Below the pieces are notes generated by a model. The model was not told the DNA's origin. It searched no databases and saw nothing but the letters and a program-made list of their open reading frames with translations. The position numbers were made by a program, and so were the translations under genes. This document shows positions 1 through 30,664 of a stretch of DNA of 64,000 bases, piece by piece (the first letter of the stretch is position 1; the number at the start of each line of letters is the position of its first letter). The stretch is from a virus (Duplodnaviria; Caudoviricetes): IMG/VR virus record IMGVR_UViG_3300028888_000001, one strand, 5' to 3'.

Positions 1-1130
1 GTGCTATAATTGTAAATTATGTTATAATTTTTATCTAAAAATATATAATGAATCCAAGACTTTGTTGGATTTGTAATATTATATTCACCATCATCAGAAT
101 TGTGATTGTTTCCAAAAAATTCAACTTTATAGTTATCTTGTATTTTAAATATTAATGTATTTTCAGCAGCTTGAATTGAGCTGTGACTATATAAAAGTGC
201 GTTATTAACAAAATAATTTTCATATAAAGAAAAATCACCATTGAATAAAATATTTTGATTTTGATACGGATGGATAATTTCAAATTCATTACATAATTCA
301 TAAACAGATTTTATTACAGGAGTTTTTACATAATCATATAATCCAGAATTATCATAAATCCCACCAGCTATTACAAATAGATAATAACCAGCTTGATTTA
401 CTTTAAATAAATTACTATTAATGGTCATATTTATTGGCTTTGTTTGAGTAGTCGTAAACCCATTAGATTCTATAATTTCAGCACTTAAAGAGCTAAGATC
501 TACACCTTCATTGGTAGCTATATTTAATTTATAAAAATATAATCTGCACCCATAATTTATTTTTATAATATCATTTTCATCTAAATAAATCGGTTTGTAT
601 GTACAAATTCTAGCTGCATTATATTTTAAATACAGCAAAGAGGTTGATGATATATCTCCGATAACAAAATAATCATCTAAAAGACTATTATTTCTTAAAC
701 AATTAACATCGGCACTTACCTTTTCAAATTCAGTCGCTTTAAAAATTGTATGCTCATAATCTATTTCCATTCTATAGCTTGTATTCAATTTTCTATAAGT
801 AAGTATAATATAATTAATTTTTTCAGTAATAGTAATATCTTGATATGCTAAATTTTTTACTGTAAATCTATTAATAATAGATTTATTTTTATCGAATGCA
901 CAAATAGTAAACCAATTATCTTCATTATTTATATCACCATAATTATTCACTCTAAGAAATAAAATATTAGTCATATTTATAAAATTACTATGAACTTCAT
1001 TATATGTACTACTAGGATTGATAACATCTCCAATACTATTAATAAATCCAGGTTCATAAATTATTTTTTCTACCTTATAAAATAATTTCGAATTTAGATA
1101 CTTTTCATCCTCTACCAAATCGTTAGAAAG
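1..1130 (-). CDS. Silent variable tail-fibre C-terminal cassette C1 (runs off the window start)
   Basis: Minus-strand frame opens at the recombination core (LSNDLVEDEKYLNSKLFYKVEKIIYEPGFINSIG...) and, by manual translation, stays open to the window edge. No SD/ATG at its head; absent from the ORF track because it is truncated. Confidence 0.8.
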
Positions 1131-1204
1131 TGAATTAGGCTTACGCCTAATTCTATTATTTTTCGATTAATAACGTATTTTTCATTTGATCTTTCTAACG
1201 ATTT
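1117..1204. repeat. 88-bp spacer copy 1: inverted 14-bp recombination cores flanking a hairpin
   Basis: AAATCGTTAGAAAG (1117-1130) ... GAATTAGGC-TTAC-GCCTAATTC hairpin ... CTTTCTAACGATTT (1191-1204). Near-identical to 24627-24714 and to the reverse complement of 30577-30664. Confidence 0.97.
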
Positions 1205-4019
1205 AGCACAATCATTATGGGGTAGCAGTGGAGAACCATCAGAAGAAGCTTCTGGAACTAATTTTAATACTATAACTAATAAAATATCTTTATTAAAAAA
1301 TGAAATAATACAATCTAATAACGGTATACAAAATTTTGCTAGTTATGGCAATTTCCAGCATTATGGTTTAGATAAGAATGGAGCCTTTTTAATATCACAA
1401 AAATATAGAGTATCTAATGATGATCCTATGCAATTTGATAGAGATATTATTATAAATATAGCAGATGGTTTTGCTGTGGGTTATATACCTTTTGTAGATT
1501 CTATTAAAGGACTATGGAGTGGATGGAAAACCGCCCCATTTAAAATTGCAGCTTTTACTGATTTTATTTTACAAATCAAAAGAAACCCAACAGAAAATTT
1601 TTCTGAAATTGCAGATGTAGATGAATTTGTATCTGCAATAACGTTTGATACATATATACATGCAAAAATTAATGCTTTAGGCGATGAAATAAACTCTATA
1701 GAACCAGGATATTACCATCCTCAAATAATAACAGAAAATAATGAGACTATATGGCCTTTAAAATATGGATATGGTAATTTAAATGGAACGTCGTTAGTAT
1801 GGATAGATTCTAAAAATTATTTAACTACGGATCCATCTGTACCAATTGCTGTTGAACCAGGCGATGTTATAGTATTAAAAGATACATTATATAGATATTT
1901 TGTAGTGGTAACTTATGATGAAGGGCAAAATTGGGAAAGCTTATCTAGTACAAGAATGACAGACTTACCAATTGTACAGAAAGGTAAGATAATAATTACC
2001 ATTAGAAAAAATGTTACTGCCTATCTTGAAAAAGATAAAATTAATAAATTTTCAGATATTATAGCTATAAATAAACATTCTCTTATATTAAATAATACTA
2101 ATAATTTAAGAAATGGCCTTATACTTTCAACTTACGGCATTCAAACATTTCAACCATACACAAGTTTTCACCATTATGGATTACATGATACTGAATATAA
2201 TGTAGGTATCAAATATAGAGTATCGAGTATAGTTCCAATAAAATTTGATATGGATATCAAAGTACACGTGAAAGATGGATTTAAATGGGGTTATATTCCT
2301 TTTGAAAATGGTGAAGCTGGTAATTGGTCAAATTGGAAAATCACAGATGTAATAATTAGTGCTAATACAGAATTTATTATTCAAATTGCTAGGGTAGATG
2401 AAAATTATTCTGAAATTGCAGATGTAGATGAATTTACATCAGCGTTAACATTTAATACAATAATAAAAGATGAAATAGAAATTTTATCGAATAAAGCCTA
2501 TACCTTTGAAAATAATATCAAAAGGATTAATAATCTTGATTATGATTTAATGAATGGCGTAGAATGGGAGCTTGGCTATTATGCCCTTGCAGGTAAAACC
2601 AATTCTGATATTATGATACGCATAAATGATTATATAACAATTAGTCAAATGAATAAAATAAATATATGGTGTGATACTGGATACAGATATTTTTACATAC
2701 TATATGATGAGAATAGAAATACTATAGAAGCAATACCATTTTCATCGTCTAAAAGAGAAATCAATGCGGTTGCTAAGAATGCTTCATATATGTCTATTAC
2801 GCTGAGAAGAAATTCTGATGGCGAGATGGATATTTCAGAGGGCGAAGTGGTACATGTAACAATAAATTCACCATTATTTAATAGCTTAGCAAATATAAAC
2901 ACATCAAGCTTATCAGACAGAATTAGCGTTGTTGAAAATATTTTCCGTTATGATAGATATTTTTCACATATTGGAGTTTCAGGAAGCACTAATATTATTA
3001 TACCATCTCAATCAATTGCAGATGTAATGAGAACAAAAAGGCTTGGGTTTAAAGTATTAGAGATTAATGTTCATAAAACATCTGATAATCATTATGTTTG
3101 TTTACATGGCTCAAGCGGAAAATTTGGAGATCAGTTTATTGGAACCGATGGAAGCAATGTTTCAGATATTGCAATTACTAGTGTAACATTAGATTGGATT
3201 AAAGAAAATGTACGTTATAAAAGTAAATATAAAAAATATCAAACTTCGCCTTATTCGTTAGAAGAGATTCTTTATGAAATGAAAAAACTTAATATCATTC
3301 CACTTGTACAATATTCCGATAATACAATGATAGATATATTAAATCAGATAATGGGTGCAAATAATTATATATTAAATTTATATGCAGGTGATAGAGACGA
3401 TAAAACTGATGCGACATGCACTTCATGGACATCTATAGCAAACATCAATGAAGCAGTTGCTAAATGCCAAACATGTGGAAAAACTTATTATCTTGGAGTA
3501 AATCATTCAAATGCTGCATTTAATGATTTCACTGATTCTGATTGGATAAATTATATAAACACTATACATGAAGCAGGATACTATGTAATGGGCGCATATA
3601 TGAATTTACAAGCTGCTGTAAAGTTTTTTGGAATGGGGTGGGATGCATTAGCATCAACCGCACAAATTAATGAAATCGAAACTGGCAATTTATGCAATCT
3701 ATTTTCTGATAATGATTTTAGTGATTTTAATACAACTGGTATTATAGAAAATGGGGTATTAACCATTGATAATGATGATAAAATTTCTCCATCTGTTACT
3801 CTTGATAGTGTATTTCTAGGTGGAGGAAGTTTACATATCCGTTTTGATGGTTTAATTCATATAAAAATAGGTAAGATTGATGACTCTTTAGAGAGTGATG
3901 GTAGTGGCGATGTGTGGGTTTCAAGTTATTTTGAAGAGCAATCACCTACATTTTCCATCGAAACCGATTCAAATGGCGCCATTATATATGAATTGTCTTA
4001 TAAGGCAAGTAGGCTTTAA
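1191..4019 (+). CDS. Silent variable cassette C2 with glycerophosphodiester phosphodiesterase (GDPD)-like domain
   Basis: ORF 1428..4019 extends 79 codons upstream in frame to the core (LSNDLAQSLWGSSGEPSEEASGTNFNT...). GDPD-like motif FSHIGVSG..IPSQSIADVMRTKRLGFKVLEINVHKTSDNHYVCLHG. Confidence 0.8.
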   Translation, partial: LSNDLAQSLWGSSGEPSEEASGTNFNTITNKISLLKNEIIQSNNGIQNFASYGNFQHYGLDKNGAFLISQKYRVSNDDPMQFDRDIIINIADGFAVGYIPFVDSIKGLWSGWKTAPFKIAAFTDFILQIKRNPTENFSEIADVDEFVSAITFDTYIHAKINALGDEINSIEPGYYHPQIITENNETIWPLKYGYGNLNGTSLVWIDSKNYLTTDPSVPIAVEPGDVIVLKDTLYRYFVVVTYDEGQNWESLSSTRMTDLPIVQKGKIIITIRKNVTAYLEKDKINKFSDIIAINKHSLILNNTNNLRNGLILSTYGIQTFQPYTSFHHYGLHDTEYNVGIKYRVSSIVPIKFDMDIKVHVKDGFKWGYIPFENGEAGNWSNWKITDVIISANTEFIIQIARVDENYSEIADVDEFTSALTFNTIIKDEIEILSNKAYTFENNIKRINNLDYDLMNGVEWELGYYALAGKTNSDIMIRINDYITISQMNKINIWCDTGYRYFYILYDENRNTIEAIPFSSSKREINAVAKNASYMSITLRRNSDGEMDISEGEVVHVTINSPLFNSLANINTSSLSDRISVVENIFRYDRYFSHIGVSGSTNIIIPSQSIADVMRTKRLGFKVLEINVHKTSDNHYVCLHGSSGKFGDQFIGTDGSNVSDIAITSVTLDWIKENVRYKSKYKKYQTSPYSLEEILYEMKKLNIIPLVQYSDNTMIDILNQIMGANNYILNLYAGDRDDKTDATCTSWTSIANINEAVAKCQTCGKTYYLGVNHSNAAFNDFTDSDWINYINTIHEAGYYVMGAYMNLQAAVKFFGMGWDALASTAQINEIETGNLCNLFSDNDFSDFNTTGIIENGVLTIDNDDKISPSVTLDSVFLGGGSLHIRFDGLIHIKIGKIDDSLESDGSGDVWVSSYFEEQSPTFSIETDSNGAIIYELSYKASRL

Positions 4020-4054
4020 TATATTAATATAAATATTATTTTCTATCGATATAA

Positions 4055-4082
4055 AACCCAGAGGGAGTAATCCCTCTGGGTT
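4055..4082. terminator. Hairpin terminator, GGGA-GTAA-TCCC family
   Basis: AACCCAGAGGGA GTAA TCCCTCTGGGTT between convergent genes. Confidence 0.85.
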
Positions 4083-4117
4083 AGTTTATGCTAGACTTTT
4101 ATATATAATTATTTTGA

Positions 4118-5871: not shown

Positions 5872-5887
5872 TTGCAAGGTGGTGCTT

Positions 5888-8629
5888 ATGGCTAAAAAGA
5901 TATTATTACAGAAAAAAGTTGGCACATCAGTAGAATCGATTTATACTAAAACATCTGCTGATATTGTTATTTATGATGAAAGTACAGGGCAGAATACAAA
6001 AGATAAAATAGATTCTTTAGAAACAAAAGAAGATAATCTTATTAGAATTGGCACCTGCTCCACAGCTGCAAATGTTAAAGATAAAGTAGTTACTTGCTCT
6101 AATTTTGTTTTATACACTGGAGCTATCATAGCTGTAAAATTCGCAGCTACAAATAGTTATTCTGCCACTGCATCTAGTCCTATCACATTAAATGTAAATA
6201 ATACCGGAGCAAAGAATATTTATTATAATGATACTGCAAATCCAACCGGTACTAACACCACAGCGTTTGGGACAGCTAGTTATTATAATTATTATATATA
6301 TGATGGCACGTATTGGGTATTCTTATCCAGAAGTACAGATGCTAACAGTACATATGCTGCATATTCTTTAGGTATTGGTTATGCTACATGTACAACCGCT
6401 GAAGCTACCGCAGCTAAAGTAGCAGCATTTAAAAATGGTACTTATACATTACATCCAAATGGCATTGTTGCTGTTGAGTTCGCCAATGCAGTGCCAGCGA
6501 ATGCTACATTAAATATTAATAATAAAGGCGCAAAACCAATTTTTTATTGTGACGCAGCCATCACCAATGGAATTATTTCAGGTGGAGACACAGCTACATT
6601 TGTTTATGACGGAACAAATTATAATCTTATTTCTATTAATAGGGCAATTGATACGGCACTTAATAGTACATCAAATAACCCTGTAGAAAATAAAGTCATT
6701 AATGCTGCTTTAAGTAATAAAGTAGATAAGGTTAGTGGTAAAGGCCTTAGTACCAATGACTTTACAGCAGCATACAAGTCTGCATTGGATAATTTATCTA
6801 CTAATCTAGACGGTAAGGTTGATAAAGTGGATGGCTCATCTTTAATGACTGAAGATGAACATACTAAGCTTGCTGGTATTGCTGCTGGAGCTAATAAAAC
6901 TACTGTAGATTCAGCACTTAACTCTAGCTCTACTAATCCAGTTCAAAATAAAGTTATTAATACAGCACTTGGCGCCAAAGTCAATACCAGTGATATTACC
7001 ACTACAGCACCAGCATCTACTAATACAGACGCACAGGTTCCATCTACTAAGAGTATGTATACTGCTCTTAATACTAAAGTTGATAAAGTTAGTGGTAAAG
7101 GATTATCTACTAATGATTTTACAGCAACATATAAAACTGCATTGGATAATCTGTCTACTAATTTAAATAAAAAAGTCAACACTAGTGATATTACTACTGC
7201 AACTCCTACAAGTGAAAATACCGACACTCAAGTACCTAGTACCAAGAGTATGTATACGGCACTTGACGCTAAAGTAGATAAAGTAGATGGCTCATCTTTA
7301 ATGACTGAAGAAGAGCATACTAAGCTTGCAGGTATTGCTACTGGAGCCACTAAAATTACAGTAGACTCTGCTCTATCTAGTTCATCAACTAATCCAGTTC
7401 AAAATAAAGCTATAAATACAGCACTTAGCGGTAAGATAGCTACTAGCTCTATTACTACTAGTGCTCCAGCATCTACTAATACTGATGCTCAAGTGCCATC
7501 AACTAAGAGTATGTATACTGCTTTAGCCACTAAACCAACTGCAACTCTTACCACCGCTGCCCCTTCAAGTAGTAGCACCGATGCTCAAGTGCCTAGCACT
7601 AAGAGTATGTATACTGCACTTAGTAATAAGGTAGATAAAGTATCTGGTAAGGGATTATCTACCAATGACTTTACTACAGAGTATAAGAATAAAGTAGATA
7701 ATACTATTGTTTATTGTACATGTGCCACTGCAGCAGCGACTCAAGTGAAAGTTGTTGATACTCCAGATGGATTCACTCTATTCACTGGTACGGTAATTGC
7801 TGTTAAATTTACATATACAAACACTTATAATTCAACTGCAACAGCGCCGGTAAAACTAAATGTAGGTGGTACTGGTGAAAAGCAAATCTATTATGATGCT
7901 TCAGCAGCTAATACTGGCGCAAATTCATCTATTTATGGTGTTGCTAATAATGTTATATTCTATATGTATGATGGTACATATTGGGTATGGCTTAACAGAA
8001 ACTACGATAATAATACCACTTATTCAAATGCATCTCTTGGAACTGGTTATGCCACGTGCACAACTGCCGAAGCAACTGCAGCTAAAGTAGCAGCATTTAA
8101 AAATGGTACTTATACATTAGCAGCAAATGGTATTGTTGCTGTTAAGTTTACATATGCAGTACCAGCAAACGCTACATTAAATATTAATAATAGAGGCGCA
8201 AAACCGATATACTTTAATAATGCAGTAATCACTGCAGGTGTTATTTCTGCTGGAGATACTGCTACGTTCTTTTACGATAATACCAATTACAATGTTATTA
8301 ATATTATGCATGAGCGTCCTAATATAATATATTGGGGAGCTGGTGCAGCTAGTCCAACTATAAATTCTGCATTTATAACAGGATTAGGAAATTCAGAAAC
8401 TATAGAGAAACAACAACTTGATGCTAAGCAAGTCACTTTAGCCTCGGGTGAATATTTATATATTGCAGTTCCATCCTCAATAACTTCTCCAATAATTAAG
8501 TTATTTGGGTTTGTTACTGCGTGTTCTAAAGTTGGAACTAGCATTGCTGTAAATAGCGTGAATTATGACGTATACAAAGCTCCAAATACTGTTAATGCTA
8601 GCACTAATTATATACTGGAGCTATGTTAA
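5888..8629 (+). CDS. Long repetitive tail fibre protein
   Basis: Start likely ATG 5888 after AAGGTGGTG. Duplicated CxTAA..K/YDGTYW domains at both ends; central repeats KVDKVSGKGLSTNDFT, TVDSALxSSSTNPVQNK, TDAQVPSTKSMYTAL. Confidence 0.8.
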   Translation: MAKKILLQKKVGTSVESIYTKTSADIVIYDESTGQNTKDKIDSLETKEDNLIRIGTCSTAANVKDKVVTCSNFVLYTGAIIAVKFAATNSYSATASSPITLNVNNTGAKNIYYNDTANPTGTNTTAFGTASYYNYYIYDGTYWVFLSRSTDANSTYAAYSLGIGYATCTTAEATAAKVAAFKNGTYTLHPNGIVAVEFANAVPANATLNINNKGAKPIFYCDAAITNGIISGGDTATFVYDGTNYNLISINRAIDTALNSTSNNPVENKVINAALSNKVDKVSGKGLSTNDFTAAYKSALDNLSTNLDGKVDKVDGSSLMTEDEHTKLAGIAAGANKTTVDSALNSSSTNPVQNKVINTALGAKVNTSDITTTAPASTNTDAQVPSTKSMYTALNTKVDKVSGKGLSTNDFTATYKTALDNLSTNLNKKVNTSDITTATPTSENTDTQVPSTKSMYTALDAKVDKVDGSSLMTEEEHTKLAGIATGATKITVDSALSSSSTNPVQNKAINTALSGKIATSSITTSAPASTNTDAQVPSTKSMYTALATKPTATLTTAAPSSSSTDAQVPSTKSMYTALSNKVDKVSGKGLSTNDFTTEYKNKVDNTIVYCTCATAAATQVKVVDTPDGFTLFTGTVIAVKFTYTNTYNSTATAPVKLNVGGTGEKQIYYDASAANTGANSSIYGVANNVIFYMYDGTYWVWLNRNYDNNTTYSNASLGTGYATCTTAEATAAKVAAFKNGTYTLAANGIVAVKFTYAVPANATLNINNRGAKPIYFNNAVITAGVISAGDTATFFYDNTNYNVINIMHERPNIIYWGAGAASPTINSAFITGLGNSETIEKQQLDAKQVTLASGEYLYIAVPSSITSPIIKLFGFVTACSKVGTSIAVNSVNYDVYKAPNTVNASTNYILELC

Positions 8630-8740: not shown

Positions 8741-8810
8741 GTATATTATATTTTTATTGCATAACTAACTTTAAAGTAAATTTATTAATTATCTAAAGGA
8801 GGAAACAGAA

Positions 8811-9386
8811 ATGTCAGGTTATGCTTTCACTTGGCTTGCATCACCATCACTTTTTGGATCTTGGGAAGTTAATATTATCATAGGTAGCTTTCCTCAGAAA
8901 ATAATTGCTGCTTATGATAAGCTTGAAGAAACTATGGTTGGAGCAAAATATGAGCCTATAGCTATGCTTGCTAAGCAGGTTGCTAATGGGACGAACTATG
9001 CTATGCTTGCACAACAGACTATTATCACCAAGCAGCCTCAGAAGAATATTGTTGTTATGAAGTTTAACGAGAGTGACATGGATTGTGTGCTATATTCTAT
9101 TGAGCCTATTCTTATTGGAAATAATCTTTATGGAGGTCTTAAGATTGATCCGAAGATTGGCCATGAGATTGATCCAGAATTTATTGAATCTTTCAAATCT
9201 ACAACTCAAGGCTGGTTGGGTGTTAAGCTTGAACCGGTTATTCTTCTTGCAACTAAAGTAGTTAAGGGTATTGATCTTACGTGGCTTTGCTACGATGCTG
9301 GAGTTACTCCCAAAGATAAGCCAGACGTTTTACTTGTAACAACCAATAGCGTAACTCATTCTATTGATTACGCAGAGATACTGTAA
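8811..9386 (+). CDS. Hypothetical protein, paralog of 4118..4657
   Basis: AAGGAGG SD. Shared blocks YEPIAMLAKQVANGTNY, KNIVVMKFNE, LATKVVKG. Confidence 0.8.
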   Translation: MSGYAFTWLASPSLFGSWEVNIIIGSFPQKIIAAYDKLEETMVGAKYEPIAMLAKQVANGTNYAMLAQQTIITKQPQKNIVVMKFNESDMDCVLYSIEPILIGNNLYGGLKIDPKIGHEIDPEFIESFKSTTQGWLGVKLEPVILLATKVVKGIDLTWLCYDAGVTPKDKPDVLLVTTNSVTHSIDYAEIL

Positions 9387-13111: not shown

Positions 13112-13119
13112 TTCAGTAA
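13098..13119 (-). repeat. Recombination site, 22-bp inverted copy of the expressed-gene site
   Basis: AAATCGTTAGAAAGTTCAGTAA is the exact reverse complement of 18242-18263. Confidence 0.95.
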
Positions 13120-13142
13120 CTTATTTTTACAAAAAAATAATA

Positions 13143-13170
13143 TGCCCATAGGGAGAAATCCCTATGGGTA
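13143..13170. terminator. Hairpin terminator insulating the silent site at 13098-13119
   Basis: TGCCCATAGGGA-GAAA-TCCCTATGGGTA. Confidence 0.8.
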
Positions 13171-13291
13171 CACATATAAGTTTAAATTATTCTTCATGTA
13201 GATCTGCTGTTATTTGATCATAATCGTTGTTAGATATAACAGTAACTCTATATATAATCAAAGAAAAACGAATTTGTAAAACAAAATTTAT

Positions 13292-13315
13292 CCCTCTAGC
13301 CGTTAGGCTAGAGGG
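13292..13315. terminator. Hairpin terminator
   Basis: CCCTCTAGCC-GTTA-GGCTAGAGGG. Confidence 0.7.
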
Positions 13316-13320
13316 TTTTA

Positions 13321-13527
13321 TTAATAATTTACATTGCTGACAATTCCGCCATTATACATATCTTTCTTTTTCTTTTCTATAATCTTATCCATTTGGCTAT
13401 AGAGAGATAATAAAGTATTATAGTCCATTGCATTTATTAAATTTATTGCTCTGGATAAATATTCTCCTTGCATATATGTATATGGATAAATATTTCTATT
13501 ATCATTGCATGTATTATAACTGCTCAT
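13321..13527 (-). CDS. Hypothetical protein
   Basis: AGGAG SD; 68 aa. Confidence 0.55.
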   Translation of the reverse strand: MSSYNTCNDNRNIYPYTYMQGEYLSRAINLINAMDYNTLLSLYSQMDKIIEKKKKDMYNGGIVSNVNY

Positions 13528-13547
13528 TATTGGCTCCTATAGGGTAT

Positions 13548-13793
13548 TCATCTCATACGTTTATCTATTATTTTCTTGCATGCTAGAAATCTTATACGAT
13601 CACTTTCAATGACAAATTTATCATTCTTATGATCTTGCATATAGTTCCAGCATTGTAGCGAAGACCAATCTTTCAATTCCGTTTCAATTGCATCATTAAT
13701 TGCTTTAGATTCTATTTTTATCATTTTTATTGATACAATGATAAATGCCACTAATACTATAGTAATTAATGTGCTTGAAATATAAAAAACCAT
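13548..13793 (-). CDS. Small membrane protein
   Basis: GAGGTG SD; N-terminal hydrophobic helix. Confidence 0.6.
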   Translation of the reverse strand: MVFYISSTLITIVLVAFIIVSIKMIKIESKAINDAIETELKDWSSLQCWNYMQDHKNDKFVIESDRIRFLACKKIIDKRMR

Positions 13794-13930
13794 ATTTTTA
13801 AATCACCTCAAAAACTTTCTATAATAGAGTATAGCACTGCTACTGCTGTGCTCGTATTCTATTATTAAGAATTAATTAGCGATATGCCAATATGATATGC
13901 ACTCTTAATACGTATATGTTGAATAAAAAA

Positions 13931-15868: not shown

Positions 15869-15896
15869 TAAATTATACGTAAGGAGGTGAAAATAC

Positions 15897-17051: not shown

Positions 17052-17076
17052 AATAAACTTAAGGAGGATATAATAA

Positions 17077-20000: not shown

Positions 20001-20427
20001 AGATGGTTGGAGTATTATTATACTTACGCATTGGTTTGATATGCGTACAAATGATTCTAGAAATCTTCGCCAAATATTTGACAATGCAAGAAATAATGGT
20101 AAAGATATAATAGCGATTTTTTCTGGGCATGCTCATTATGATGCAGTATGGCATACTGAAGGCGGCATACCTATTATTGTAACTACTTGTGATAAAAATA
20201 GTCCATGGATAAAAAATGGGACTGATATGGAACCATGGTTGACAGAACAAAGAATTAGTGGAACTATAAATGAACAAGCATTTGATGTTGTAATAATTGA
20301 TAGAAAGACAAAAAAGATTACTTCTGTTCGTATTGGAGCACCAGCTATGAATAATATAGATATTACCCCGTTAAATGAAAATTGGTCGTATGATAATGTG
20401 TTAGAAGAACGTGAAATTTTATATTAA
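17077..20427 (+). CDS. Expressed tail fibre/tailspike: 391-aa constant N-terminus fused to variable cassette C4 (calcineurin-like metallophosphoesterase)
   Basis: AAGGAGG SD. Fibre repeats, then DPTLSVSGAAADAKVTGDQLTE-LSNDL at the core (18250). Composition turns sharply AT-rich after the core. Metallophosphoesterase motifs ITDEH, GGD, GNHD, LTHW, SGHAH. Confidence 0.9.
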   Translation: MAKTLSNYDPLVQVPASMTPANGTFPIVEAHDVLVGASDKRLDSKLSDIDDAISAITDGDSGGLNDKVDKSAMTTTVAAAASAVDTKIPTEKAVRTAIDAKTITVDSALSTTSTNAVQNKVVNTALDTKVDKVTGKQLSTEDYTSAEKTKLAGVATGATNTPIVATANKPADAASAVETNVLSSKATLTAIDSAIDAASEDFDAAAAALQTSYNTFTNEVDAKIGEPSDTADPAATAVWPRLKNAENDIGALSAQFLVANALTTTEMSDTSRFYIYKGKELHVVAAEADMTDTTGDIIYSLTTAGSTYAVGLYSYDSANSNYAALTAADVFNITIEGSATAGTIFYPSYWYYYDTNTWKMGSAMASVDVDPTLSVSGAAADAKVTGDQLTELSNDLTNNKDEIYDLNVFCKKEIETKISAACNLIAGKSVVASNQLITVNIANGQHYKFLLKDDDHFINGQYFLYENGTDAKALETNTLHLLTASKDINFISIYINGAIIIESGVVEAILYKIDEFENSLENQILSLKNNEEKINNDIKNNILSIENDIKLFYNGTSLILDNVLWENGQFDHAGNKNNGPNQRRTAYPIKFTDTIKISRAEGASISIYILELDENKSPIKDLYRITTSEKLLSNEDCAYIDIMLYSTTIPQAELEQNITIELIRSIDESSVLETEDRNSEIDELKNNTLGNAYFKINSKLESNAEITRQVGLSVSDFISIPPSFKYMKVYTGSDTTKRIICFYDENKEFLGWRGVDGTASEYRSLALNDTFSATYLRFTFVTNYDARVEVDNRNIYRKYSYLTNKEIPSYYQNYIEQKIIRINELASEVAAAGDIFVFITDEHWGLNQKNSIPLISYLNKRCHFNKIFSGGDTDDNPSEEFCNNLREAFPYSIYHAAGNHDWFAESGALIYYYFHSYNTNQIGNMEKNYYYIDDQTKNIRYIILNRFRQVDKTWINAYDDEDQLNWVQDKALNIQDGWSIIILTHWFDMRTNDSRNLRQIFDNARNNGKDIIAIFSGHAHYDAVWHTEGGIPIIVTTCDKNSPWIKNGTDMEPWLTEQRISGTINEQAFDVVIIDRKTKKITSVRIGAPAMNNIDITPLNENWSYDNVLEEREILY
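18242..18263 (+). repeat. Recombination (crossover) site within the expressed gene
   Basis: TTACTGAA-CTTTCTAACGATTT; core in frame at codon 392. Confidence 0.95.
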
Positions 20428-20441: not shown

Positions 20442-20475
20442 ATAATGCTATAGGGAGTTATCCCTATAGCATTAT
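20442..20475. terminator. Terminator after cassette C4
   Basis: ATAATGCTATAGGGA-GTTA-TCCCTATAGCATTAT. Confidence 0.85.
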
Positions 20476-20537
20476 CGTATTTTTTGACATTCTATTAATA
20501 GTAATAAACATGTTTTTATATCGTTGGAGGTAATTTT

Positions 20538-22456: not shown

Positions 22457-24640
22457 TTATTCATCGATATTATCATCTATAATGTTATTTTGAGTTACTG
22501 TTAATTTTGATTGATTATCAATTAAATTAAAAGTGCCAGTTTTATTATAGTACTTAAATAAATTATTATTCAAACAAATATATTTTGCCGCATCACCAGT
22601 TTCGATTCCAGTATCAGTATAATAACCTACACCATCAAATATATTATTACTTATAATACATTTATTGCAATCTTGTATATTTATCGCTGGACCAGCAAAA
22701 TCACTAAATGAATTATTTTTTATTAAAACATTTGCCCCTCTAAATACATATATAGCAGATCTATTACCACTATGTAATGGATGATTATAATCATTCTGTA
22801 AATCTTTATCCCAATATGTATTAACATGAGCTATAACTATATTATCTTGAATAACACCATTGCAATGGAAAGTGTTTCCTTGAACGCAAGCTAATATATA
22901 GTTAATATTGTCTCTAAAAATAACGTTATTAGATAAGCAAAGATTTGCTGCAGCACCAATATAAAATCCTGCAAAACTACCGCCATCTACAACATTATTT
23001 CTTATAGAAATACCAACAATATTATGCCCAGCTCCATTATTTGTATCTATACACCATGGACCGTTTTCCATTAAATCTGTTATTGTATCTATATTGTCAT
23101 AATCTTTAAATAATGCGGATGTATGTGTTACATTGTTTTCTTCACACCAATGTGTGCCGCATGAATGGAATCTGCAGCTTTCAACTCTCCATCCTCTACT
23201 TGATACTGGAGGTGTACCGGCATAAGACGCTGGCCTGAATAAAACTCCTTTATTACAATTACTAAAACCGCATTCTTTTATTTCGCAATTCTTTCCAAAT
23301 GCAACTATTCCGATTATACAAAATCTTAAATAGCATCTTATTACTGTCGCATCAAGATGTGGAATTTCATCTGCATTTATAGCTGTAGATCTATGAAATT
23401 TAATACCTCTCGCTAACCAATCCGCTTGTATTGTTAAATCCTGAAAATGTGAACCACTGTCTTGTATCTCAAACATATAATATTTTGAAAAATCGCTAGA
23501 AGCCTTAATAGTTGGATTATGGCAAGAGAAACTAGTGCCTTGAAACGTCATATTAGTATATGTTCTTGGTACAACTATTGTATCTGAAATAGTGTATGTT
23601 TTATTCTTATTGAATGTTATTGTTCCATTAGCCCCAATATAATTAATGGATGCTTGTATCGCTTGATAATAATCCCCGTTATCAATTCCATCAATATATG
23701 CTAGCTCAGGATCTATTATGGCATTTAACCATGGTTTACCATTTACCATATTATCAAATACCATATTACATAAATAACAATAAACAGTATTTTCATCTAC
23801 TGATATAGCTGCATCATTGTGATGCTTTATTGTTATACTTAAATAACCATCACATTCTATTTTAATTAGCTTTCTAATTTTATGAGTATGAAAAACAGCA
23901 CCATCGTAACTCCAAATTATTGAAGCTGAACCATCTTCTTTATTAGTGTCATATATCCTAAGCACTGCCATCAAAGCATCTATTTCTTGTGTTTGAATAA
24001 TTAAATACATACCTTTGCTGACTTTAGGCATATTTGTATTGATCAACCTAATATTACTATTATTAATGGTTCCATTGTCTGCTCTTGAACCCAATTTAAA
24101 ATCATTTATAGCTTCCTTACCAGAATTTATAATTTTTTCTAAATTATTTTTATTGTCTTCACAATGCTCTCTAGCAATTTTATCTTTTGCAGTGAAATTA
24201 TTATATATTATATCATTTATAGTACTACTATTTAAATTAACTATATTTGGAAATACATAGCAATCATCTGGTTTGATCAGTTCTCCGGTTGTCTCATTAT
24301 ATGCATAACAAAAATTAATAAAATAAGCATTATTTGTTTGGATATCTACATTAGTATAATTTTTAACATTAGATGTTGTGCTACGTTCAATAATACGTTT
24401 AATAAATGTTTTATTTTCATCATATAACCCTATGCGATGTATAAAACTATTACCACCATTATTTATAAATCCCAATGTAATATATGAATACTTAGAAACA
24501 TCTATAAAATCGCTCACCCAGAATTTATTTGCTTTAACTACCTTGCCATAAGCATCAAGTTGAACATCGTATTGTACTTTATGTTTATTAAATAAATTAT
24601 TATTTTTATTTTCTGTTGAATATTTTAAATCGTTAGAAAG
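22457..24640 (-). CDS. Silent variable cassette C5 with right-handed beta-helix (pectate lyase-like depolymerase)
   Basis: ORF 22457..24517 extends 41 codons in frame to the core (LSNDLKYSTENKNNNLFNK...). DYYQAIQASINY..GTITF..TYTISDTI cap motif followed by IxNN beta-helix rungs. Confidence 0.8.
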   Translation of the reverse strand, partial: LSNDLKYSTENKNNNLFNKHKVQYDVQLDAYGKVVKANKFWVSDFIDVSKYSYITLGFINNGGNSFIHRIGLYDENKTFIKRIIERSTTSNVKNYTNVDIQTNNAYFINFCYAYNETTGELIKPDDCYVFPNIVNLNSSTINDIIYNNFTAKDKIAREHCEDNKNNLEKIINSGKEAINDFKLGSRADNGTINNSNIRLINTNMPKVSKGMYLIIQTQEIDALMAVLRIYDTNKEDGSASIIWSYDGAVFHTHKIRKLIKIECDGYLSITIKHHNDAAISVDENTVYCYLCNMVFDNMVNGKPWLNAIIDPELAYIDGIDNGDYYQAIQASINYIGANGTITFNKNKTYTISDTIVVPRTYTNMTFQGTSFSCHNPTIKASSDFSKYYMFEIQDSGSHFQDLTIQADWLARGIKFHRSTAINADEIPHLDATVIRCYLRFCIIGIVAFGKNCEIKECGFSNCNKGVLFRPASYAGTPPVSSRGWRVESCRFHSCGTHWCEENNVTHTSALFKDYDNIDTITDLMENGPWCIDTNNGAGHNIVGISIRNNVVDGGSFAGFYIGAAANLCLSNNVIFRDNINYILACVQGNTFHCNGVIQDNIVIAHVNTYWDKDLQNDYNHPLHSGNRSAIYVFRGANVLIKNNSFSDFAGPAINIQDCNKCIISNNIFDGVGYYTDTGIETGDAAKYICLNNNLFKYYNKTGTFNLIDNQSKLTVTQNNIIDDNIDE

Positions 24641-24714
24641 TGAATTAGGCTTACGCCTAATTCTATTATTTTTTGATTAATAATGTATTTTTCATTTGAT
24701 CTTTCTAACGATTT
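24627..24714. repeat. 88-bp spacer copy 2
   Basis: Same as 1117-1204 except two C>T changes. Confidence 0.97.
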
Positions 24715-26479
24715 AGATAATTCCATTGATAATGCAAATTATATTAACAATTTGTTAGGAATTCAACAAAATAGTTTAGCAATACCACCAACTTTAATTG
24801 AAGAAGATACAGCAAGCCAAAGAATTTCATCCAATGCAGATGCTCCATTTATATTAAATGAACCTATATATTCCATTAATAGCCTTATTATAGGTATTAT
24901 GATTAATGCCAAAACTATTGGCACATTAGATATTTATACAATTAAAAGGATAAATGCTATCGATGGCCAGCCTTTTAATTATAATGATTTTACATTAAAA
25001 GAAACCTTAAATGTTACTAATACTGGAGTTCAAATTATTAAATTTAAAAATCCATTTATTCTTCCAGATGATGAATATTTAGCAGTAGCTTCACCAAATA
25101 GCACATGTAGATTTTATTTTGGTACTGGTTACAATCAGAGTTTTTTATATAGATCACATAATACTGAAACTGATACGTATATTCATAAAAAATCATCGTA
25201 TATAAATATAGCGGTCATATATAAAGATATGTATTTAATAAATGATGATAGTATATTTAAAAAAGTAAGTTCAATTTTACAAATACTTAATTTACTTAAT
25301 ATTAATGAAACACTTATTTTAAATGGTCGTGTTAGTACAGCTAAAAATATTGCAAATATTAATAATGCTCCATATTTTTTACAAACAACTTTTAATTATG
25401 ATTATTATATTACAAAAATAAATTTTAAAACATCAACATCGGGTACTATATCATTTGGAGTTATTGATCCAAAAGATTTAACGAATAATAAACCAGAAAA
25501 TTTAAATATACAAAACATACAAACTACAACTGTATATTCTGAAGGTGAACATGATATTATTTTTGATGAGCCACTATTACTTAAAAAAGGATGGCGTCTA
25601 ATGTATTATTTACCATCAGATTCTGCTAAAATTATATATCACAGCGGAACTCCTGCAGATGTCGATCATGGATTTTTATTTTATAATGCTACCAGTAAAA
25701 CACTACAAACTGCTACTAGTTCGTTAAATTTGATATTATATGGCATAAAATCAACAAATGATGATACTACTGATAGTATTTATAAAGATAAAGCCATTAG
25801 TATACTTGGAGATTCAATTAGTACATTTTCAGGCTATATTCCTGAAGGGAATGCTGTATATTATCCAAGCGGAACAATTACATCTGTATCTGATACATGG
25901 TGGAAAAAATTAATAGATGCATTAGGGGCAAATCTTGAAATAAATAACTCATGGTCTGGATCTAGAGTAACTACAACTGCTGGTGAAACTTCTGCAGGAT
26001 GCATGGATAGGTGTGAAAATCTAGGCAATCCAGATGCTATTATAATATACATGGGTATTAACGATTTCAATAATGAAGTGCCGATTGGAGAGTATGATGG
26101 AACTAGTACTATTCCAGAAAGCACTATAACTTTCAGAGAAGCCTATGCAATAATGCTTAATAAAGTATTGACAAAATATCAATTTGCTGAAATTTGGGTT
26201 TGTACTTTGCCACAATGTGAAAGAAATAGTGAAACAGGATTCCCAGAAATTAATCAACAAAATTTACCTTTATATGAATATAACAAAGCTATAGTCGAAT
26301 TGGCTAATGCTTTTGGAGTAAAAATTTTAGACCATAATAAATGCGGTATGACGTATCAAAATATGCCGACATTTAATCCAGATAAATTACATCCTAATAA
26401 AAATGGACATTCGCTTATGGCAAATAATGCAATTAAACAAATGGACCCAAGTATTAAATTTAGGTACCCTATTAGTTAA
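24701..26479 (+). CDS. Silent variable cassette C6 with SGNH/GDSL hydrolase domain
   Basis: LSNDLDNSID at the core; ILGDSIS, NSWSGS, MGINDF, DKLHPN motifs. The annotated ATG at 24683 lies in the spacer and has no SD. Confidence 0.85.
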   Translation, partial: LSNDLDNSIDNANYINNLLGIQQNSLAIPPTLIEEDTASQRISSNADAPFILNEPIYSINSLIIGIMINAKTIGTLDIYTIKRINAIDGQPFNYNDFTLKETLNVTNTGVQIIKFKNPFILPDDEYLAVASPNSTCRFYFGTGYNQSFLYRSHNTETDTYIHKKSSYINIAVIYKDMYLINDDSIFKKVSSILQILNLLNINETLILNGRVSTAKNIANINNAPYFLQTTFNYDYYITKINFKTSTSGTISFGVIDPKDLTNNKPENLNIQNIQTTTVYSEGEHDIIFDEPLLLKKGWRLMYYLPSDSAKIIYHSGTPADVDHGFLFYNATSKTLQTATSSLNLILYGIKSTNDDTTDSIYKDKAISILGDSISTFSGYIPEGNAVYYPSGTITSVSDTWWKKLIDALGANLEINNSWSGSRVTTTAGETSAGCMDRCENLGNPDAIIIYMGINDFNNEVPIGEYDGTSTIPESTITFREAYAIMLNKVLTKYQFAEIWVCTLPQCERNSETGFPEINQQNLPLYEYNKAIVELANAFGVKILDHNKCGMTYQNMPTFNPDKLHPNKNGHSLMANNAIKQMDPSIKFRYPIS

Positions 26480-26552: not shown

Positions 26553-27578
26553 ATGTATAATAATTTTAAAAATGATTTTATTTCAGATTTACAAACACTT
26601 AATTTAGAATTATCAAAAAGTCAAATGAATAAAATATTAGCGGTGCTTGACAGCACCGCTACTAATTATGACATTATCGATCGTGCCAGCGCAAATAGAT
26701 TACAGGTTACTAATGGAGTGCCGCAAAGTGTATATGATTACATACAATGTAAGAAAGCTGAAGGATTATCTAAAGATACATTATATGTATATAAAATAAT
26801 GCTAGAAATATTCTTTCGTACAGTACAAAAGCCTCCAGAATATATTGAGGCTACAGATATAATGAACTTTTTGAGGGAATATCAAAATAACAATAAAATA
26901 TCTAATAGAACGTTAGATAAGTATAGACAATATATTTGTTGTTATTTTGTGTTTATTTATGATTATGGATATATTTCTAGAAATCCATCTCGTCAAGTAA
27001 AAAAGATTAAATACGAAACCAAACCCCAACCAGTATTAACAGAATATGAGACTGAGCTCATTCGTGGGGCATGTAAATCTAAGAGAGAAACAGCAATAAT
27101 AGAATTCTTTCTTTCTACAGCATGCAGAGTTGGGGAATTAGTTAAAGTAAAAATATCTGATATTGACTGGGACCGAGATGAAGTCATGTTATTTGGTAAA
27201 GGATCTAAATATGGTGTGAGTTTTATAACGCCTAGATGTAGATATGCTATAGAAGAATATCTTAAACATAGAAAATTAATAGATCCAGACGAGCATTCAG
27301 ATTATTTATTTATTAGAGAAAGAAAGCCTTATACGTGTTTATCTACTAGAGGAGTTGAAGATATAATAGAACGTATAATGAGTAGAGTTAGTAATATTCC
27401 TAAAAGAGTAACACCTCATACTACAAGAAGAAGCAGTTCTACCAATGCATATCTTAATGGCATGAGTCTAGAAGACATTAGAGGATGGTTAAGGCATGCA
27501 GATATTAGAACTACGGAAATTTATGTAAGAAATTCTACTAACCATATACATGGTGAACATAAGCGATTTGTACATTAA
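26553..27578 (+). CDS. XerC/D-like tyrosine recombinase, candidate shufflon invertase
   Basis: AAGGAGG SD. Catalytic set R (STACRVGEL), K (GKGSK), HxxR (TPHTTR), H (LRHAD), Y (TTEIY); N-terminal core-binding domain. Confidence 0.92.
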   Translation: MYNNFKNDFISDLQTLNLELSKSQMNKILAVLDSTATNYDIIDRASANRLQVTNGVPQSVYDYIQCKKAEGLSKDTLYVYKIMLEIFFRTVQKPPEYIEATDIMNFLREYQNNNKISNRTLDKYRQYICCYFVFIYDYGYISRNPSRQVKKIKYETKPQPVLTEYETELIRGACKSKRETAIIEFFLSTACRVGELVKVKISDIDWDRDEVMLFGKGSKYGVSFITPRCRYAIEEYLKHRKLIDPDEHSDYLFIRERKPYTCLSTRGVEDIIERIMSRVSNIPKRVTPHTTRRSSSTNAYLNGMSLEDIRGWLRHADIRTTEIYVRNSTNHIHGEHKRFVH

Positions 27579-27595
27579 AAAATAAATATTCATAT

Positions 27596-27632: not shown

Positions 27633-28232
27633 TTATTTTTTACAATTAAGATTTTTATTTATCATAAATTTTTGAATGGCATCTTTTGTATGCTTATCAA
27701 GTTTAATGCATCTTTCATATGTAAACGCTGTTATATAAAGTTTATCAATAACAATCTTTACTTTTTCTGAATAATCGGATGAAAATGCTAAACATGAATT
27801 CCATTGATGATCATCTTCTACATAAGAACTCAAATAGCATTCTATATTACCTATGTCAGTTTTAATTAATATAACTCTTTGCCCTTTATTATATTCTGCC
27901 CAATATTCATTTGCACTGGTTTTATACCAATCTAAATTTCCTACCTCCGTATCAATACAAAGTTCTTGTAAGAAGCTTATAATCAGTGTTTCATTATTCG
28001 AAATTTCTAAATCGCATTCGAGTAATGTATCTATATTAATATTAAAATATCTAGCTAGTTTATAAACAAGTTCAACCGACATAGTTGACTTATCCGCTTT
28101 CTTTGAAAGACGACTAATATATCCAGTCGAAACTCCTATCGCCTTTTCAACATCGCCCACCAAAATTTTATTTTGTTTAATAAGAAAGTTTACATTTTTC
28201 ATAAATTGTTTAATATCATATGTTTTTTCCAT
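27633..28232 (-). CDS. Xre-family helix-turn-helix regulator
   Basis: VGDVEKAIGVSTGYISRL..SVELVYKLARYFNINIDTLL; GAGG SD. Confidence 0.8.
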   Translation of the reverse strand: MEKTYDIKQFMKNVNFLIKQNKILVGDVEKAIGVSTGYISRLSKKADKSTMSVELVYKLARYFNINIDTLLECDLEISNNETLIISFLQELCIDTEVGNLDWYKTSANEYWAEYNKGQRVILIKTDIGNIECYLSSYVEDDHQWNSCLAFSSDYSEKVKIVIDKLYITAFTYERCIKLDKHTKDAIQKFMINKNLNCKK

Positions 28233-28442
28233 AATTCGCCTCTTATTTTTATAATATAAAATCTTAATTACTTCTAAGTATATAATATATAATTGAAATA
28301 TTATTAATGGAAGGTGGATTGCTCCAGCTTCTTTTTTAATAAAAAATATTTTAACTATTTATATATTTTGTATCTGGAATTATATTTAAAATATCTCCAT
28401 TTTGTACTCGATGCTTTGTATTTATATATGTAACTTTAAATA

Positions 28443-28536
28443 CAGATATTGGAGCCATAGAAATCTATGTAAGAAATTCTATTAACCATATATACATATA
28501 TAGTGAATATAAACGATTTGTACATTAATAAATAAA
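28443..28536 (+). pseudogene. Degenerate duplicate of the recombinase 3' end
   Basis: Aligns with 27499-27586 (CAGATATT..GAAAT.TATGTAAGAAATTCTA.TAACCATATA..GTGAA.ATAA.CGATTTGTACATTAA). Confidence 0.8.
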
Positions 28537-28562: not shown

Positions 28563-30590
28563 TTATGTTAAATTAACGTTATCAACTAATTCAAAAAATA
28601 TATCTCCCTCGCTAATATTTGGCAAAGTAAATTTTGATATCATAATTTTATTATTAGACGAAATCATGTATACTATATTATCAAAAACAGAAAATGAAGG
28701 ATAAGAAAACCCATCATACCCCTCTATAATTTTTAAACTATTCATTATATTAGCAGTATCAATCTTATAAATTTCAAAATTATTACGCGTATATGGATTT
28801 GAAAATAAATATAATTCATTATTTACCTCAAAAAATGCTGGCCTTGAACTACAATTTGGCACCATACAATATTCTTTTATATTAGCATTTAAATCTAATT
28901 TAACTAAAATTCCGGCGGTATTATTTGTATAGACAGTGTTGTTATTTATATCTTTATTAGGATGGGGCCTCGACATTGCATAAATATGGCTATCTTTATA
29001 CCATACAGCTAATTCATATATTGATATTTGTTTAAATGGATAAGCGAAGAAAATTTGCCAATTATAATGATCTGTAGTTTTAAATATAATAGCATTTTTA
29101 TAAGTACCAGAAGAGCAAACCCAGCCAATATAATAATTGCCATTTCCATCATTACCAATAGTGCAGTTAGCTTGAGCACTTGTATATGCACCGGATGAAA
29201 AACTTGTTTTATAATAATAATTTATCCATTCGTAATTTAACATAATTCCATTTACATAAACAGGGTTATAATTTTGGAATTGATTATTAATTATATTATA
29301 TTCACAATAAAATTGAGTATAAATATCGTTTATTTTAACAATATAAAGAATGTGTATAATATTATCAGTGAGGTACATTGTTGGGGAGCCAGCTCCACCT
29401 GTTTCTACTAATGATTCATTATAAATTTTGCCATTTTCTGCAACTATTTGCGTATCAATTTTTTCTTTTGTAAACGGATTAATTCTATCAAATAAAAGTT
29501 TAGCAGATGGATTGCTTGCAGAATCTCCTCCTGGTATAGTGGCATCATATTGTACGTATAAGGTGTATAATATACTATTAGTATAAATTATAGTACAATC
29601 ATGCACTCCATAAGTTGTTTGATTTATTCTAATAATTTCATTGCTCACATATTGTTTATACAAATTAGCGCCATTTTTTAAAGCTAATATTCTTCTACTC
29701 ATTATATTATTTTGTATCGCATATGATAAATTTAATGCTTGGTCTAATGGATATTCATCTATAATATCATTTTGCTTTTTATCAATATAATTAATAATAT
29801 AAGAATTAATATTATTTAATATAATAATTTTAACGTTAATTTCACCAGTAAAATCTGTAAATCTTAATCTATTGACTTTAGTTGTAACATGATATATTCC
29901 ATTTATATTGGTTTTATAAGCAACAATAGTTTGTGCATAATTATTATCTATTAATCTAAATTCAGATAAGGTGGCTATTTCTGTATCTACTTCTACAATA
30001 TAAACTGCACCTGCATCTAATATTTCGCTTCCCACAAAATTTATATTAAATGCAGAATTTGCAGTTTGTTCAATAATTTTATTAGAAGTATCCTCAAAAA
30101 CAAAATCATCTGCTAAATTATGGTTAAATATTTTTAGATTTGGCATTTGCAATATAAGTTGAAGTTTTGCTTCTGTTAAAGTCGCTGCATCTGTTTTAAT
30201 TAAATATTTTTCTGTATTTATATCCGCCCTATAATTGCAAAATATGAAAGCTGTATTTTCATTTTGTATTTCGATTAAAGCATTGGTTCTACTATGAGTA
30301 TATAAATAATTTTTATCAATATCCAACTCTATTGTTTCAAAGGCATCTGTATAAAATGTTTCTCCTTTAGAAGTATTAATAAAAATTACTGGAGAAAACC
30401 ACTTATCTGATTCAAAAAGTTTATTTGTGGATGGAGAAAAATATATATTTTGGTACTGCGCATAATATAACAAATTACCTGTTTGTATTTCATTTAATTT
30501 TATAGCCGCAGTATTAAAATTTAATCCAGAAGCTTCTTCAGATGCAATTCTAGTTTCTCCATATAGTTTATAATCAATATCGTTAGAAAG
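28563..30590 (-). CDS. Silent variable cassette C7, possible sialidase-like beta-propeller
   Basis: ORF 28563..30473 extends 39 codons in frame to the core (LSNDIDYKLYGETRIASEEASGLNFNT...). Asp-box-like KTTDHYNW, ELAV..IYAMSR and FSYPS motifs; fold call tentative. Confidence 0.75.
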   Translation of the reverse strand, partial: LSNDIDYKLYGETRIASEEASGLNFNTAAIKLNEIQTGNLLYYAQYQNIYFSPSTNKLFESDKWFSPVIFINTSKGETFYTDAFETIELDIDKNYLYTHSRTNALIEIQNENTAFIFCNYRADINTEKYLIKTDAATLTEAKLQLILQMPNLKIFNHNLADDFVFEDTSNKIIEQTANSAFNINFVGSEILDAGAVYIVEVDTEIATLSEFRLIDNNYAQTIVAYKTNINGIYHVTTKVNRLRFTDFTGEINVKIIILNNINSYIINYIDKKQNDIIDEYPLDQALNLSYAIQNNIMSRRILALKNGANLYKQYVSNEIIRINQTTYGVHDCTIIYTNSILYTLYVQYDATIPGGDSASNPSAKLLFDRINPFTKEKIDTQIVAENGKIYNESLVETGGAGSPTMYLTDNIIHILYIVKINDIYTQFYCEYNIINNQFQNYNPVYVNGIMLNYEWINYYYKTSFSSGAYTSAQANCTIGNDGNGNYYIGWVCSSGTYKNAIIFKTTDHYNWQIFFAYPFKQISIYELAVWYKDSHIYAMSRPHPNKDINNNTVYTNNTAGILVKLDLNANIKEYCMVPNCSSRPAFFEVNNELYLFSNPYTRNNFEIYKIDTANIMNSLKIIEGYDGFSYPSFSVFDNIVYMISSNNKIMISKFTLPNISEGDIFFELVDNVNLT

Positions 30591-30664
30591 ATCAAATGAA
30601 AAATACGTTATTAATCGAAAAATAATAGAATTAGGCGTAAGCCTAATTCACTTTCTAACGATTT
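30577..30664. repeat. 88-bp spacer copy 3, inverted relative to copies 1 and 2
   Basis: Reverse complement of 1117-1204 apart from one mismatch in the left core (ATATCGTTAGAAAG). Confidence 0.97.

Follow-up and report, generated by a model that had tools for sequence, protein, structure and literature searches.

Site-specific DNA inversion joins one constant protein front to alternative C-termini in several described systems. In the R64/IncI shufflon, a compact plasmid cluster of ~2 kb, the Rci recombinase acts at sfx sites to vary the pilV pilus adhesin; these sites are asymmetric with one conserved arm, inversion takes place without deletion, and convergent open reading frames (ORFs) are separated by single sfx sites. 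The vsa system of Mycoplasma pulmonis, which encodes a bacterial surface lipoprotein, relies on the Xer-like recombinase HvsR and on inversion at a short coding site, with one expression site providing the promoter and front for many 5'-truncated silent genes. The latter are located in one locus as well as the hsd loci, and the one recombinase acts on these distant loci. Phage host range is switched through the inversion of tail-fibre C-terminal segments by the serine invertases Min (p15B), Gin (Mu) and Cin (P1), which make use of an enhancer. The closest described system to that reported here is the Rin shufflon of Bifidobacterium prophages, where, in a temperate siphophage, an armless XerD-like tyrosine recombinase and an 11-bp asymmetric crossover repeat (TTCCCTAACCC) form a compact locus of small segments adjacent to the invertase (Mavrich et al. 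2018, PMC6109161). A multi-cassette shufflon of 1.7 kb with 10-bp motifs, the activity of which was shown in reads, has furthermore been described for BV01-like phages (PMC13596623). The 64,000-nucleotide stretch analysed here (the window) belongs to a virus record of 313,331 bp (IMGVR_UViG_3300028888_000001; G000) with direct terminal repeats and a G+C content of 32 %, and incorporates three copies of an 88-bp junction module. With a probability of roughly 0.75, this module represents the cold junction in a shufflon that extends over the whole genome, and in which inversion by a tyrosine recombinase alters the distal half of a single tail-fibre protein (receptor-binding or depolymerase).

Anatomy and distribution of the junction module

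The three module copies are found at positions 1117-1204, 24627-24714 and 30577-30664 (genome copies S6, S5 and S4, respectively), in agreement with a preliminary description of the window in which two direct copies and one inverted copy had been reported. Copies 1 and 2 differ at two positions, copy 3 matches the reverse complement of copy 1 exactly (86/86), and identity among the three copies is 98-100 %. Each copy comprises a TCGTTAGAAAG core, an interior of exactly 60 bp and a CTTTCTAACGA core, with the two 11-bp cores inverted and outward-facing, and the ends of the module form 14-bp perfect terminal inverted repeats. The interior begins with the hairpin GAATTAGGC-TTAC-GCCTAATTC, followed by TATTATTTTT. 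This hairpin has a 9-bp stem (fold -11.2 kcal/mol) with a T-run directly after it, the G+C-containing stem-loop and T-run being the structure of an intrinsic terminator, and it scores as terminator-like when read from the hairpin side of the module (A side) to the side away from the hairpin (B side). In copy 1 the A side lies to the left and the B side to the right, with the hairpin at 1132-1153 and the T-run at 1154-1163. Copy 2 shares this orientation and carries two single nucleotide polymorphisms (SNPs), with its hairpin at 24642-24663, and the hairpin of copy 3 (30628-30649) is terminator-like on the minus strand. No Shine-Dalgarno sequence (SD; the purine-rich ribosome site) is present in the 60-bp interior of the three window copies, and the outward cores, hairpin and T-run without SD were thus recovered as previously outlined. 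An Rfam search returned tRNA as the only match.

The 11-mer core occurs eight times in the window against an expectation of 0.97, a count reached in 0/100 shuffles, with two further single cores located at 13101 (-) and 18250 (+). Across the whole genome there are fourteen exact CTTTCTAACGA cores, seven per strand, which all share one reading frame (L-S-N-D). Six 88-bp modules, three in each orientation, could be distinguished at 27.7, 34.5, 126.7, 266.9, 272.9 and 296.4 kb of G000, the first three of which fall outside the window. Together with a module at 279-284 kb, which contains the two single cores (E and E'), the six 60-bp spacers make up seven head-to-head junctions, dispersed over about 270 kb rather than arranged in the compact cluster of a shufflon. 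The boundaries are sharp, with 97-100 % identity among the six modules and unrelated flanks from the core edge outward. Only three positions vary among the six modules, none of which falls in the half with the hairpin, and the stem and loop are invariant in 6/6 copies. Both shared variants of the spacer are found in each module orientation. The two SNPs of copy 2 (24673 and 24684), relative to copies 1 and 3, are both C-to-T changes at CG dinucleotides and could reflect the deamination of methylated cytosines, with too few events to judge.

A database search for the 88-mer had been proposed in the preliminary description. While this was rewarded within the genome itself, where three more copies occur, exact searches of IMG/VR with the 22-nt hairpin and with the core-gap-core pattern gave no matches. 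Four matches to the core-gap-core pattern in JGI metagenomes are unrelated long palindromes without cassettes, and were rejected. Likewise, the single IMG/VR match to an 18-nt version of the hairpin (L073) shares no genes and has no cores, and was taken as chance. A search of IMG/VR for related loci, on the basis of the constant part of the fibre protein, the recombinase and an upstream 384-aa gene, revealed no close relative, with only a widespread fibre repeat motif being matched.

Cassettes and the expression module

When read as CTT TCT AAC GA(T), the core encodes L-S-N-D, and an ORF of between 506 and 1033 aa follows in that frame behind all fourteen genome cores. In the window these ORFs span 592-1033 aa, with one additional ORF running off the window edge, and the other two frames after the window cores close within a few codons. 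Both ORFs flanking each 88-bp module begin exactly at the core (12/12). As in a shufflon, a short asymmetric repeat, present in both orientations, is thus located 5' of every variable segment. The consensus spacer provides no ATG, GTG or TTG for the flanking cassettes and contains in-frame stops in both frames, and among the genome cores it is only at 18250 that an open frame enters the core. There is one constant front and the remaining segments are start-less, with the caveat that three of the spacers contain an ATG.

The core at 18250 (E; 18250-18260) forms codon 392 of a 1116-aa fibre gene (17077-20427, +), which is preceded by two genes of the same orientation, both having a strong AAGGAGG ribosome site. 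The constant N-terminal part of this gene (17077-18249, +; 391 aa) ends in ...QLTE at the core, and is followed by the presently expressed cassette (18250-20427, +; 725 aa), which contains a metallophosphoesterase domain. Since the constant part shows only weak matches to tail proteins, the designation 'tail fibre' is a putative one, derived from the cassette domains and the neighbouring genes. The fourteen cassettes are nearly unrelated to one another (<=35 % amino acid identity, over the enzyme domains only), bearing out the contrast between near-identical modules and unrelated flanking cassettes that had been drawn previously. Domains of the GDSL/SGNH esterase, metallophosphoesterase or beta-helix type occur in them, as is characteristic of fibre or spike tips with a surface polymer-degrading function.

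The parked cassettes of the window, which would be silent judging by the features of the spacers, include the A-side cassette of copy 1 (3-1130, -), which runs off the window and encodes 891 aa in the genome, and its B-side counterpart (1191-4019, +; 942 aa). Copy 2 is flanked by an A-side silent cassette with a weak beta-helix match (22457-24640, -; 727 aa) and a B-side cassette with an SGNH/GDSL esterase domain (24701-26479, +; 592 aa), behind which lies a recombinase gene. The silent cassettes of copy 3 are located at 28563-30590 (B side, -; 675 aa) and 30651-33752 (A side, +; 1033 aa). One further silent cassette, E' (10886-13111, -; 741 aa), encodes a GDSL esterase and begins at the core at 13101-13111. 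In a search for proteins that join the constant part to either of two window cassettes, E' matched only itself, and the A-side cassette of copy 2 (22460-24640) matched only itself and one relative at 36 % identity. A 741-aa gene in the contig of a relative was considered as an orthologue of E' and rejected, as E' matched only itself.

Upstream of the E' core there is a TAA stop, three codons away, as well as a terminator-like hairpin with a T-run (13145-13168, -), and no SD. Furthermore, the upstream arm of E' copies that of E, with TTACTGAA preceding the core as part of an inverted repeat of 34 nt (85 % complementary). The 5.1 kb between these two outward cores (13112-18249) is thus a junction in its own right, with a putatively hot E side, comprising the promoter region, operon and constant front, and a cold E' side with its terminator and stop. 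A tRNA-Ile gene (anticodon TAT; 13930-14005) and a gene for a 282-aa HNH endonuclease (14065-14913, -) are also situated in this module, and would flip along with the fibre operon.

Recombinases

A gene for an Xer-like tyrosine recombinase (26553-27578, +; 341 aa) is located directly behind the B-side cassette of copy 2, and a second recombinase with 83 % identity is encoded at about 124-125 kb of G000, behind the B-side cassette of the 126.7-kb module. The recombinase matches PF00589 (91 bits) and PF13495, and in common with the shufflons it is a tyrosine recombinase. The best NCBIfam match is Xer-like, below all equivalog cut-offs and far from the integron integrases and Fim-type invertases, and among GenBank phages only relatives with <=36 % identity were found. 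No match to the serine recombinases (PF00239) exists in the entire 313-kb genome, and a serine-invertase switch of the Gin/Cin/Min/Hin type was rejected on this basis. An integron (IntI/attC) was similarly rejected, given a TIGR02249 score of 64 bits against a cut-off of 265. The cassettes, moreover, form outward-facing pairs with an in-frame fusion to the core, and E is without a palindromic partner.

A helix-turn-helix (HTH) protein gene (27633-28232, -; 199 aa) adjoins the recombinase gene at 26553-27578, and is absent both beside the second recombinase and in the contig of the closest relative. Approximately 90 nt of the recombinase 3' end (27496-27586) are repeated with 85-88 % identity at 28440-28536, beyond the HTH gene, which looks like an insertion between duplicated recombinase 3' ends.

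Conservation in related phages

The closest relatives (ENA ERZ1029112/115/116 and ERZ27257205) were compared through their gene tables, and two related proteins, P0003 and P0004, through their sequences. Over the 500 aa that lead to ...ITELSND, P0003 and P0004 share 96 % identity, and they are unrelated beyond this point. This switch, which falls exactly at LSND, is the clearest sign of cassette exchange at the core. In P0002 the constant part is 88 % identical to that of G000 and shares the ...QLTE/LSND junction (LTELSND), and is followed by a cassette matching none of the fourteen found here (0/14). The recombinase of this contig is encoded directly after the expressed cassette.

The layout of the junction is retained in two more distant phages. 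L071 has a constant part with 35 % identity and neighbouring genes with 60-75 % identity to those of G000, and its expression site E comprises GTTACTGAA and an identical core. An inverted silent cassette lies 5.2 kb downstream of E, with its core, ATTTCTAACGA, being followed by the same hairpin and T-run. The hairpin stretch is identical to the G000 spacer at 42/48 nt, with the second stem pair changed from A-T to G-C, a compensatory change, and the outermost pair lost. The contig ends 34 nt into the spacer, as would be expected of a repeat, and neither of its two cassettes resembles any of the fourteen in G000. In L074, which derives from a 300,792-bp contig (ERZ12302818 NODE_17), the recombinase is 47 % identical and its flanking genes share 60-73 % identity with the genes at 215-220 kb of G000. 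Two 92-nt modules (93 % alike) carry outward TTTCTAGTGAT cores (I/F-S-S-D) 62 nt apart, with four start-less cassettes (524-620 aa) flanking them, and the recombinase gene is located behind a cassette on the side away from the hairpin, corresponding to the B side. Beside one core there is a hairpin, CACGATGG-loop-CCATCGTG followed by TTTTTGTTTT, with a terminator-like score on both strands. The sequence of this hairpin is unrelated to that of the G000 spacer, and its two copies share the stem and differ in the loop. A termination role is favoured because L074 keeps the layout with an unrelated hairpin sequence; the freedom of the latter to differ points to a structural function, namely termination, over a fixed protein-binding sequence. 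Furthermore, the preliminary description had viewed the module as a dedicated site at which two cassettes dock back-to-back, and a dedicated head-to-head junction is supported by the ORFs that start at the core on both sides and by the preservation of this layout in L071 and L074.

A further relative, L061, consists of the end of a 262-kb scaffold (ERZ920241 scaffold_30) and encodes a recombinase with 58 % identity. A perfect 32-bp inverted repeat containing ATCGTTAGAAAGT (8001-8032 and 8790-8821) brackets a 790-bp segment at a distance of 1.2 kb from the recombinase gene. On the basis of this repeat, the core accompanies the recombinase family even where it is non-coding. The 790-bp segment holds two small divergent genes just upstream of the operon ending in the recombinase, and looks like a simple inverton, possibly acting as a promoter or gene switch. 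Three short contigs with a 58 % identical recombinase (L062-L064; 2.4-3.6 kb) have inverted tail-fibre coding repeats (...YLTKTDAS...) at both ends, around the recombinase. This suggests that the lineage has another fibre inversion locus, of compact form, or else that the assemblies were interrupted at the coding repeats.

A proposed mechanism of cassette exchange

The Xer-like recombinase is proposed to invert the DNA between any two oppositely oriented cores. Each junction carries two outward-facing cassettes behind the asymmetric CTTTCTAACGA, with one of the fourteen cassettes expressed. Where E is one of the partners, inversion would provide the constant part with a new in-frame cassette and park the displaced one in the vacated slot, while inversion between the cores of different junctions would exchange the cassettes attached to them. 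The left arms, comprising the constant part, the E' stub and the A and B sides of the spacers, would stay put, and the spacer would thus persist as a unit, flipping only when it is situated inside an inverted stretch. Since its two cassettes point in opposite directions, each junction will always offer one that is reachable by a single inversion. Judged from the present orientations, 7/13 silent cassettes could be reached by one inversion with E and the other six would require two.

The orientation of the spacers across the genome is mixed (3:3), which would be expected because junctions inside an inverted segment flip. The opposite orientation of copy 3 had been put forward in the preliminary description as an outcome of inversion at the cores, and this can be upheld in the form of inversions between other junctions that span the spacer. 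Flipping of the 60 bp between the two cores of a single module is less plausible, as a tyrosine recombinase would probably be unable to act across so short a loop. Limits on the distance between sites apply to Cre and FLP. Gene strand, GC and AT skew per inter-junction segment provided no usable footprint of inversion, because gene orientation is mixed everywhere.

The 60-bp interior would keep the two sites apart and serve as an insulator, by means of the hairpin and U-run terminator, the in-frame stops and the absence of an SD. Read from A to B, the hairpin and T-run would stop antisense transcripts that pass through the A-side cassette before they reach the B-side cassette, and in two cases would also shield the recombinase gene behind the latter. 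In copy 2, the A-to-B direction of the hairpin coincides with the direction of read-through from the expression operon. Accessory binding sites had been raised as a possibility in the preliminary description. The cores of the expression site lack the interior, which cannot therefore be needed at both recombination partners.

The junctions may, in addition, represent shared landing pads, at which co-infecting jumbo phages swap entire tip segments in the manner of recombinase-mediated cassette exchange, through double site-specific recombination at the inverted cores. This notion arises because the cores and spacers are conserved across lineages (42/48 nt, with fronts of 35 % identity) and the cassettes differ entirely, and it is advanced as a speculative and rather doubtful extension. 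If true, the system would combine an internal switch with a platform for the horizontal exchange of receptor-binding enzymes. As part of the same speculative extension, B sides with an in-frame ATG might link expression of the recombinase to the place where its cassette is parked.

Alternative explanations

The interior of the module could have a mainly protein-binding or architectural role in place of a mainly terminating one, with the palindrome bound by a dimeric accessory factor or by the recombinase and controlling synapsis, direction or frequency. The stem and loop, invariant in the six copies and almost invariant in L071 despite the divergence of the proteins, would be in keeping with such a role, as would the HTH protein gene adjoining the recombinase. 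It is nevertheless unlikely, given that L074 keeps the layout with a wholly different hairpin, of which the stem is kept and the loop varies, and that the stem change in L071 is compensatory. E and E' would, furthermore, recombine without any 60-bp interior, and the HTH gene does not accompany the second recombinase or that of the closest relative. There is even less to recommend a miniature inverted-repeat mobile element or a repeated intergenic terminator, unrelated to the recombination of the flanking genes. The small size of the module, its perfect terminal inverted repeats, its terminator-like hairpin and its six dispersed, near-identical copies are what such an element would present. The terminal repeats are, however, in frame with long ORFs on both sides (12/12), the same core is located inside the expressed gene where the proteins of relatives switch sequence, no target-site duplication occurs at the six copies, and in three phages the module is accompanied by a linked recombinase of the corresponding family. 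This explanation is accordingly regarded as extremely improbable.

The spacer could also be an expression element, providing a start codon and perhaps a promoter, in which case parked B-side cassettes, and the recombinase behind them, would be produced as free proteins. In S1, S3 and S5 the B-side cassette gains an in-frame ATG, six or seven codons before the B-side core, through two independent SNPs, which account for two of the three polymorphic positions in the spacer. In the 27.7- and 126.7-kb modules (S1 and S3) it lies seven codons before the core and in copy 2 six codons (24683-24685), and the third polymorphism adds a TGA just upstream of the ATG. A coincidence of this kind has a p of about 0.004-0.007 under a crude random-substitution model. 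Both recombinase-linked cassettes bear the ATG, as does the recombinase-linked module of L074, the other L074 copy reading ATG-TAA. No SD precedes any of the spacer ATGs in S1, S3 and S5, however, even though the genes of this phage use strong AAGGAGG sites, three copies are without an ATG, and neither promoter-like matches nor enriched upstream motifs are located in the spacer. When phage promoter motifs were sought by k-mer analysis, only generic AT-rich words emerged, none of which is spacer-specific. A dedicated expression element is therefore considered very unlikely. Some of the parked cassettes may still not be fully silent.

Several observations weigh against the shufflon interpretation itself. 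No inversion isomer of this genome was found at the DNA level, with two to three independent long assemblies being identical in the expressed protein and in the neighbourhood of S3 (126.7 kb). The cassettes at 27-127 kb would need inversions of 150-250 kb, and we know of no precedent for an inversion of this size in a phage. With 3/6 spacers supplying an in-frame ATG to the B-side cassette, the term 'silent' may not hold for all of them. The near-identity of the hairpin to that of L071, including the loop, exceeds what a plain terminator needs, and protein binding or a recent exchange of the module are possible reasons for it. Termination by the phage's own RNA polymerase is likewise putative.

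Other repeats in the window

A 916-aa gene (5879-8629) with matches to tail-fibre repeats includes internal direct repeats of 150-274 nt (60-86 % identity), and its short repeat motif recurs in the constant part of the fibre gene at 17444-17555. A family of intergenic hairpins occurs at 4054-4100, 13140-13197, 20444-20490, 33768-33814, 40661-40707 and 48915-48961, and is shared with the relative L074 (6166, 11066 and 15910). Their sequence is conserved, (C/T)CC(A/T)(T/G)AGGGAG-NNAT-CCCT..GGG, mostly with a T-run after it, and they are probably the standard bidirectional terminators of the phage, with an unusually conserved sequence.

Comparison with known systems

The described phage shufflons are compact, covering a few kb, and the same principle would here extend across a whole 313-kb genome. 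If inversion does take place, it would flip up to about 250 kb. The system would have a bearing on the means by which uncultured jumbo phages of the rumen and gut deal with variation in host surfaces, on genome assembly, as the contigs of relatives break at these repeats, and on the reading of synteny between jumbo phages. The junction itself is a small and testable part, in that its sites, hairpin and ATG, and the length of the spacer, are each open to mutation.

The present locus resembles the Rin shufflon in its phage-encoded tyrosine recombinase, in the 11-bp repeat before each variable C-terminal receptor-binding segment and in the single constant N-terminal part, with the recombinases likened on the basis of description. 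The core sequences differ (TTCCCTAACCC in Rin, CTTTCTAACGA here), and in place of compact small segments there are fourteen enzyme-bearing cassettes (500-1000 aa), dispersed across about 270 kb out of 313 kb. Furthermore, no counterpart of the conserved 60-bp hairpin-bearing head-to-head junction has been described for Rin. The R64 shufflon similarly has several invertible segments, one constant front with alternative C-termini and asymmetric sites, but the latter are single sfx sites, as opposed to paired sites with a terminator spacer. In its plan of one expression site and many silent genes the locus is like vsa, which is bacterial rather than phage-borne, and to our knowledge vsa has no equivalent of the junction module. 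The switching of phage host range through inverted tail-fibre C-terminal segments is shared with the BV01-like shufflon and with Min, Gin and Cin, which are serine invertases with an enhancer, whereas the genome described here is without a serine recombinase. Both these loci and the BV01-like locus are compact (1.7-3.5 kb), in contrast to the dispersed system of G000. None of the papers in the collection searched joined a jumbo phage with a shufflon. The features that set the system apart from those described are the dispersal over a jumbo-phage genome, the larger and more numerous enzyme-bearing cassettes, and the standard hairpin-bearing head-to-head junction.

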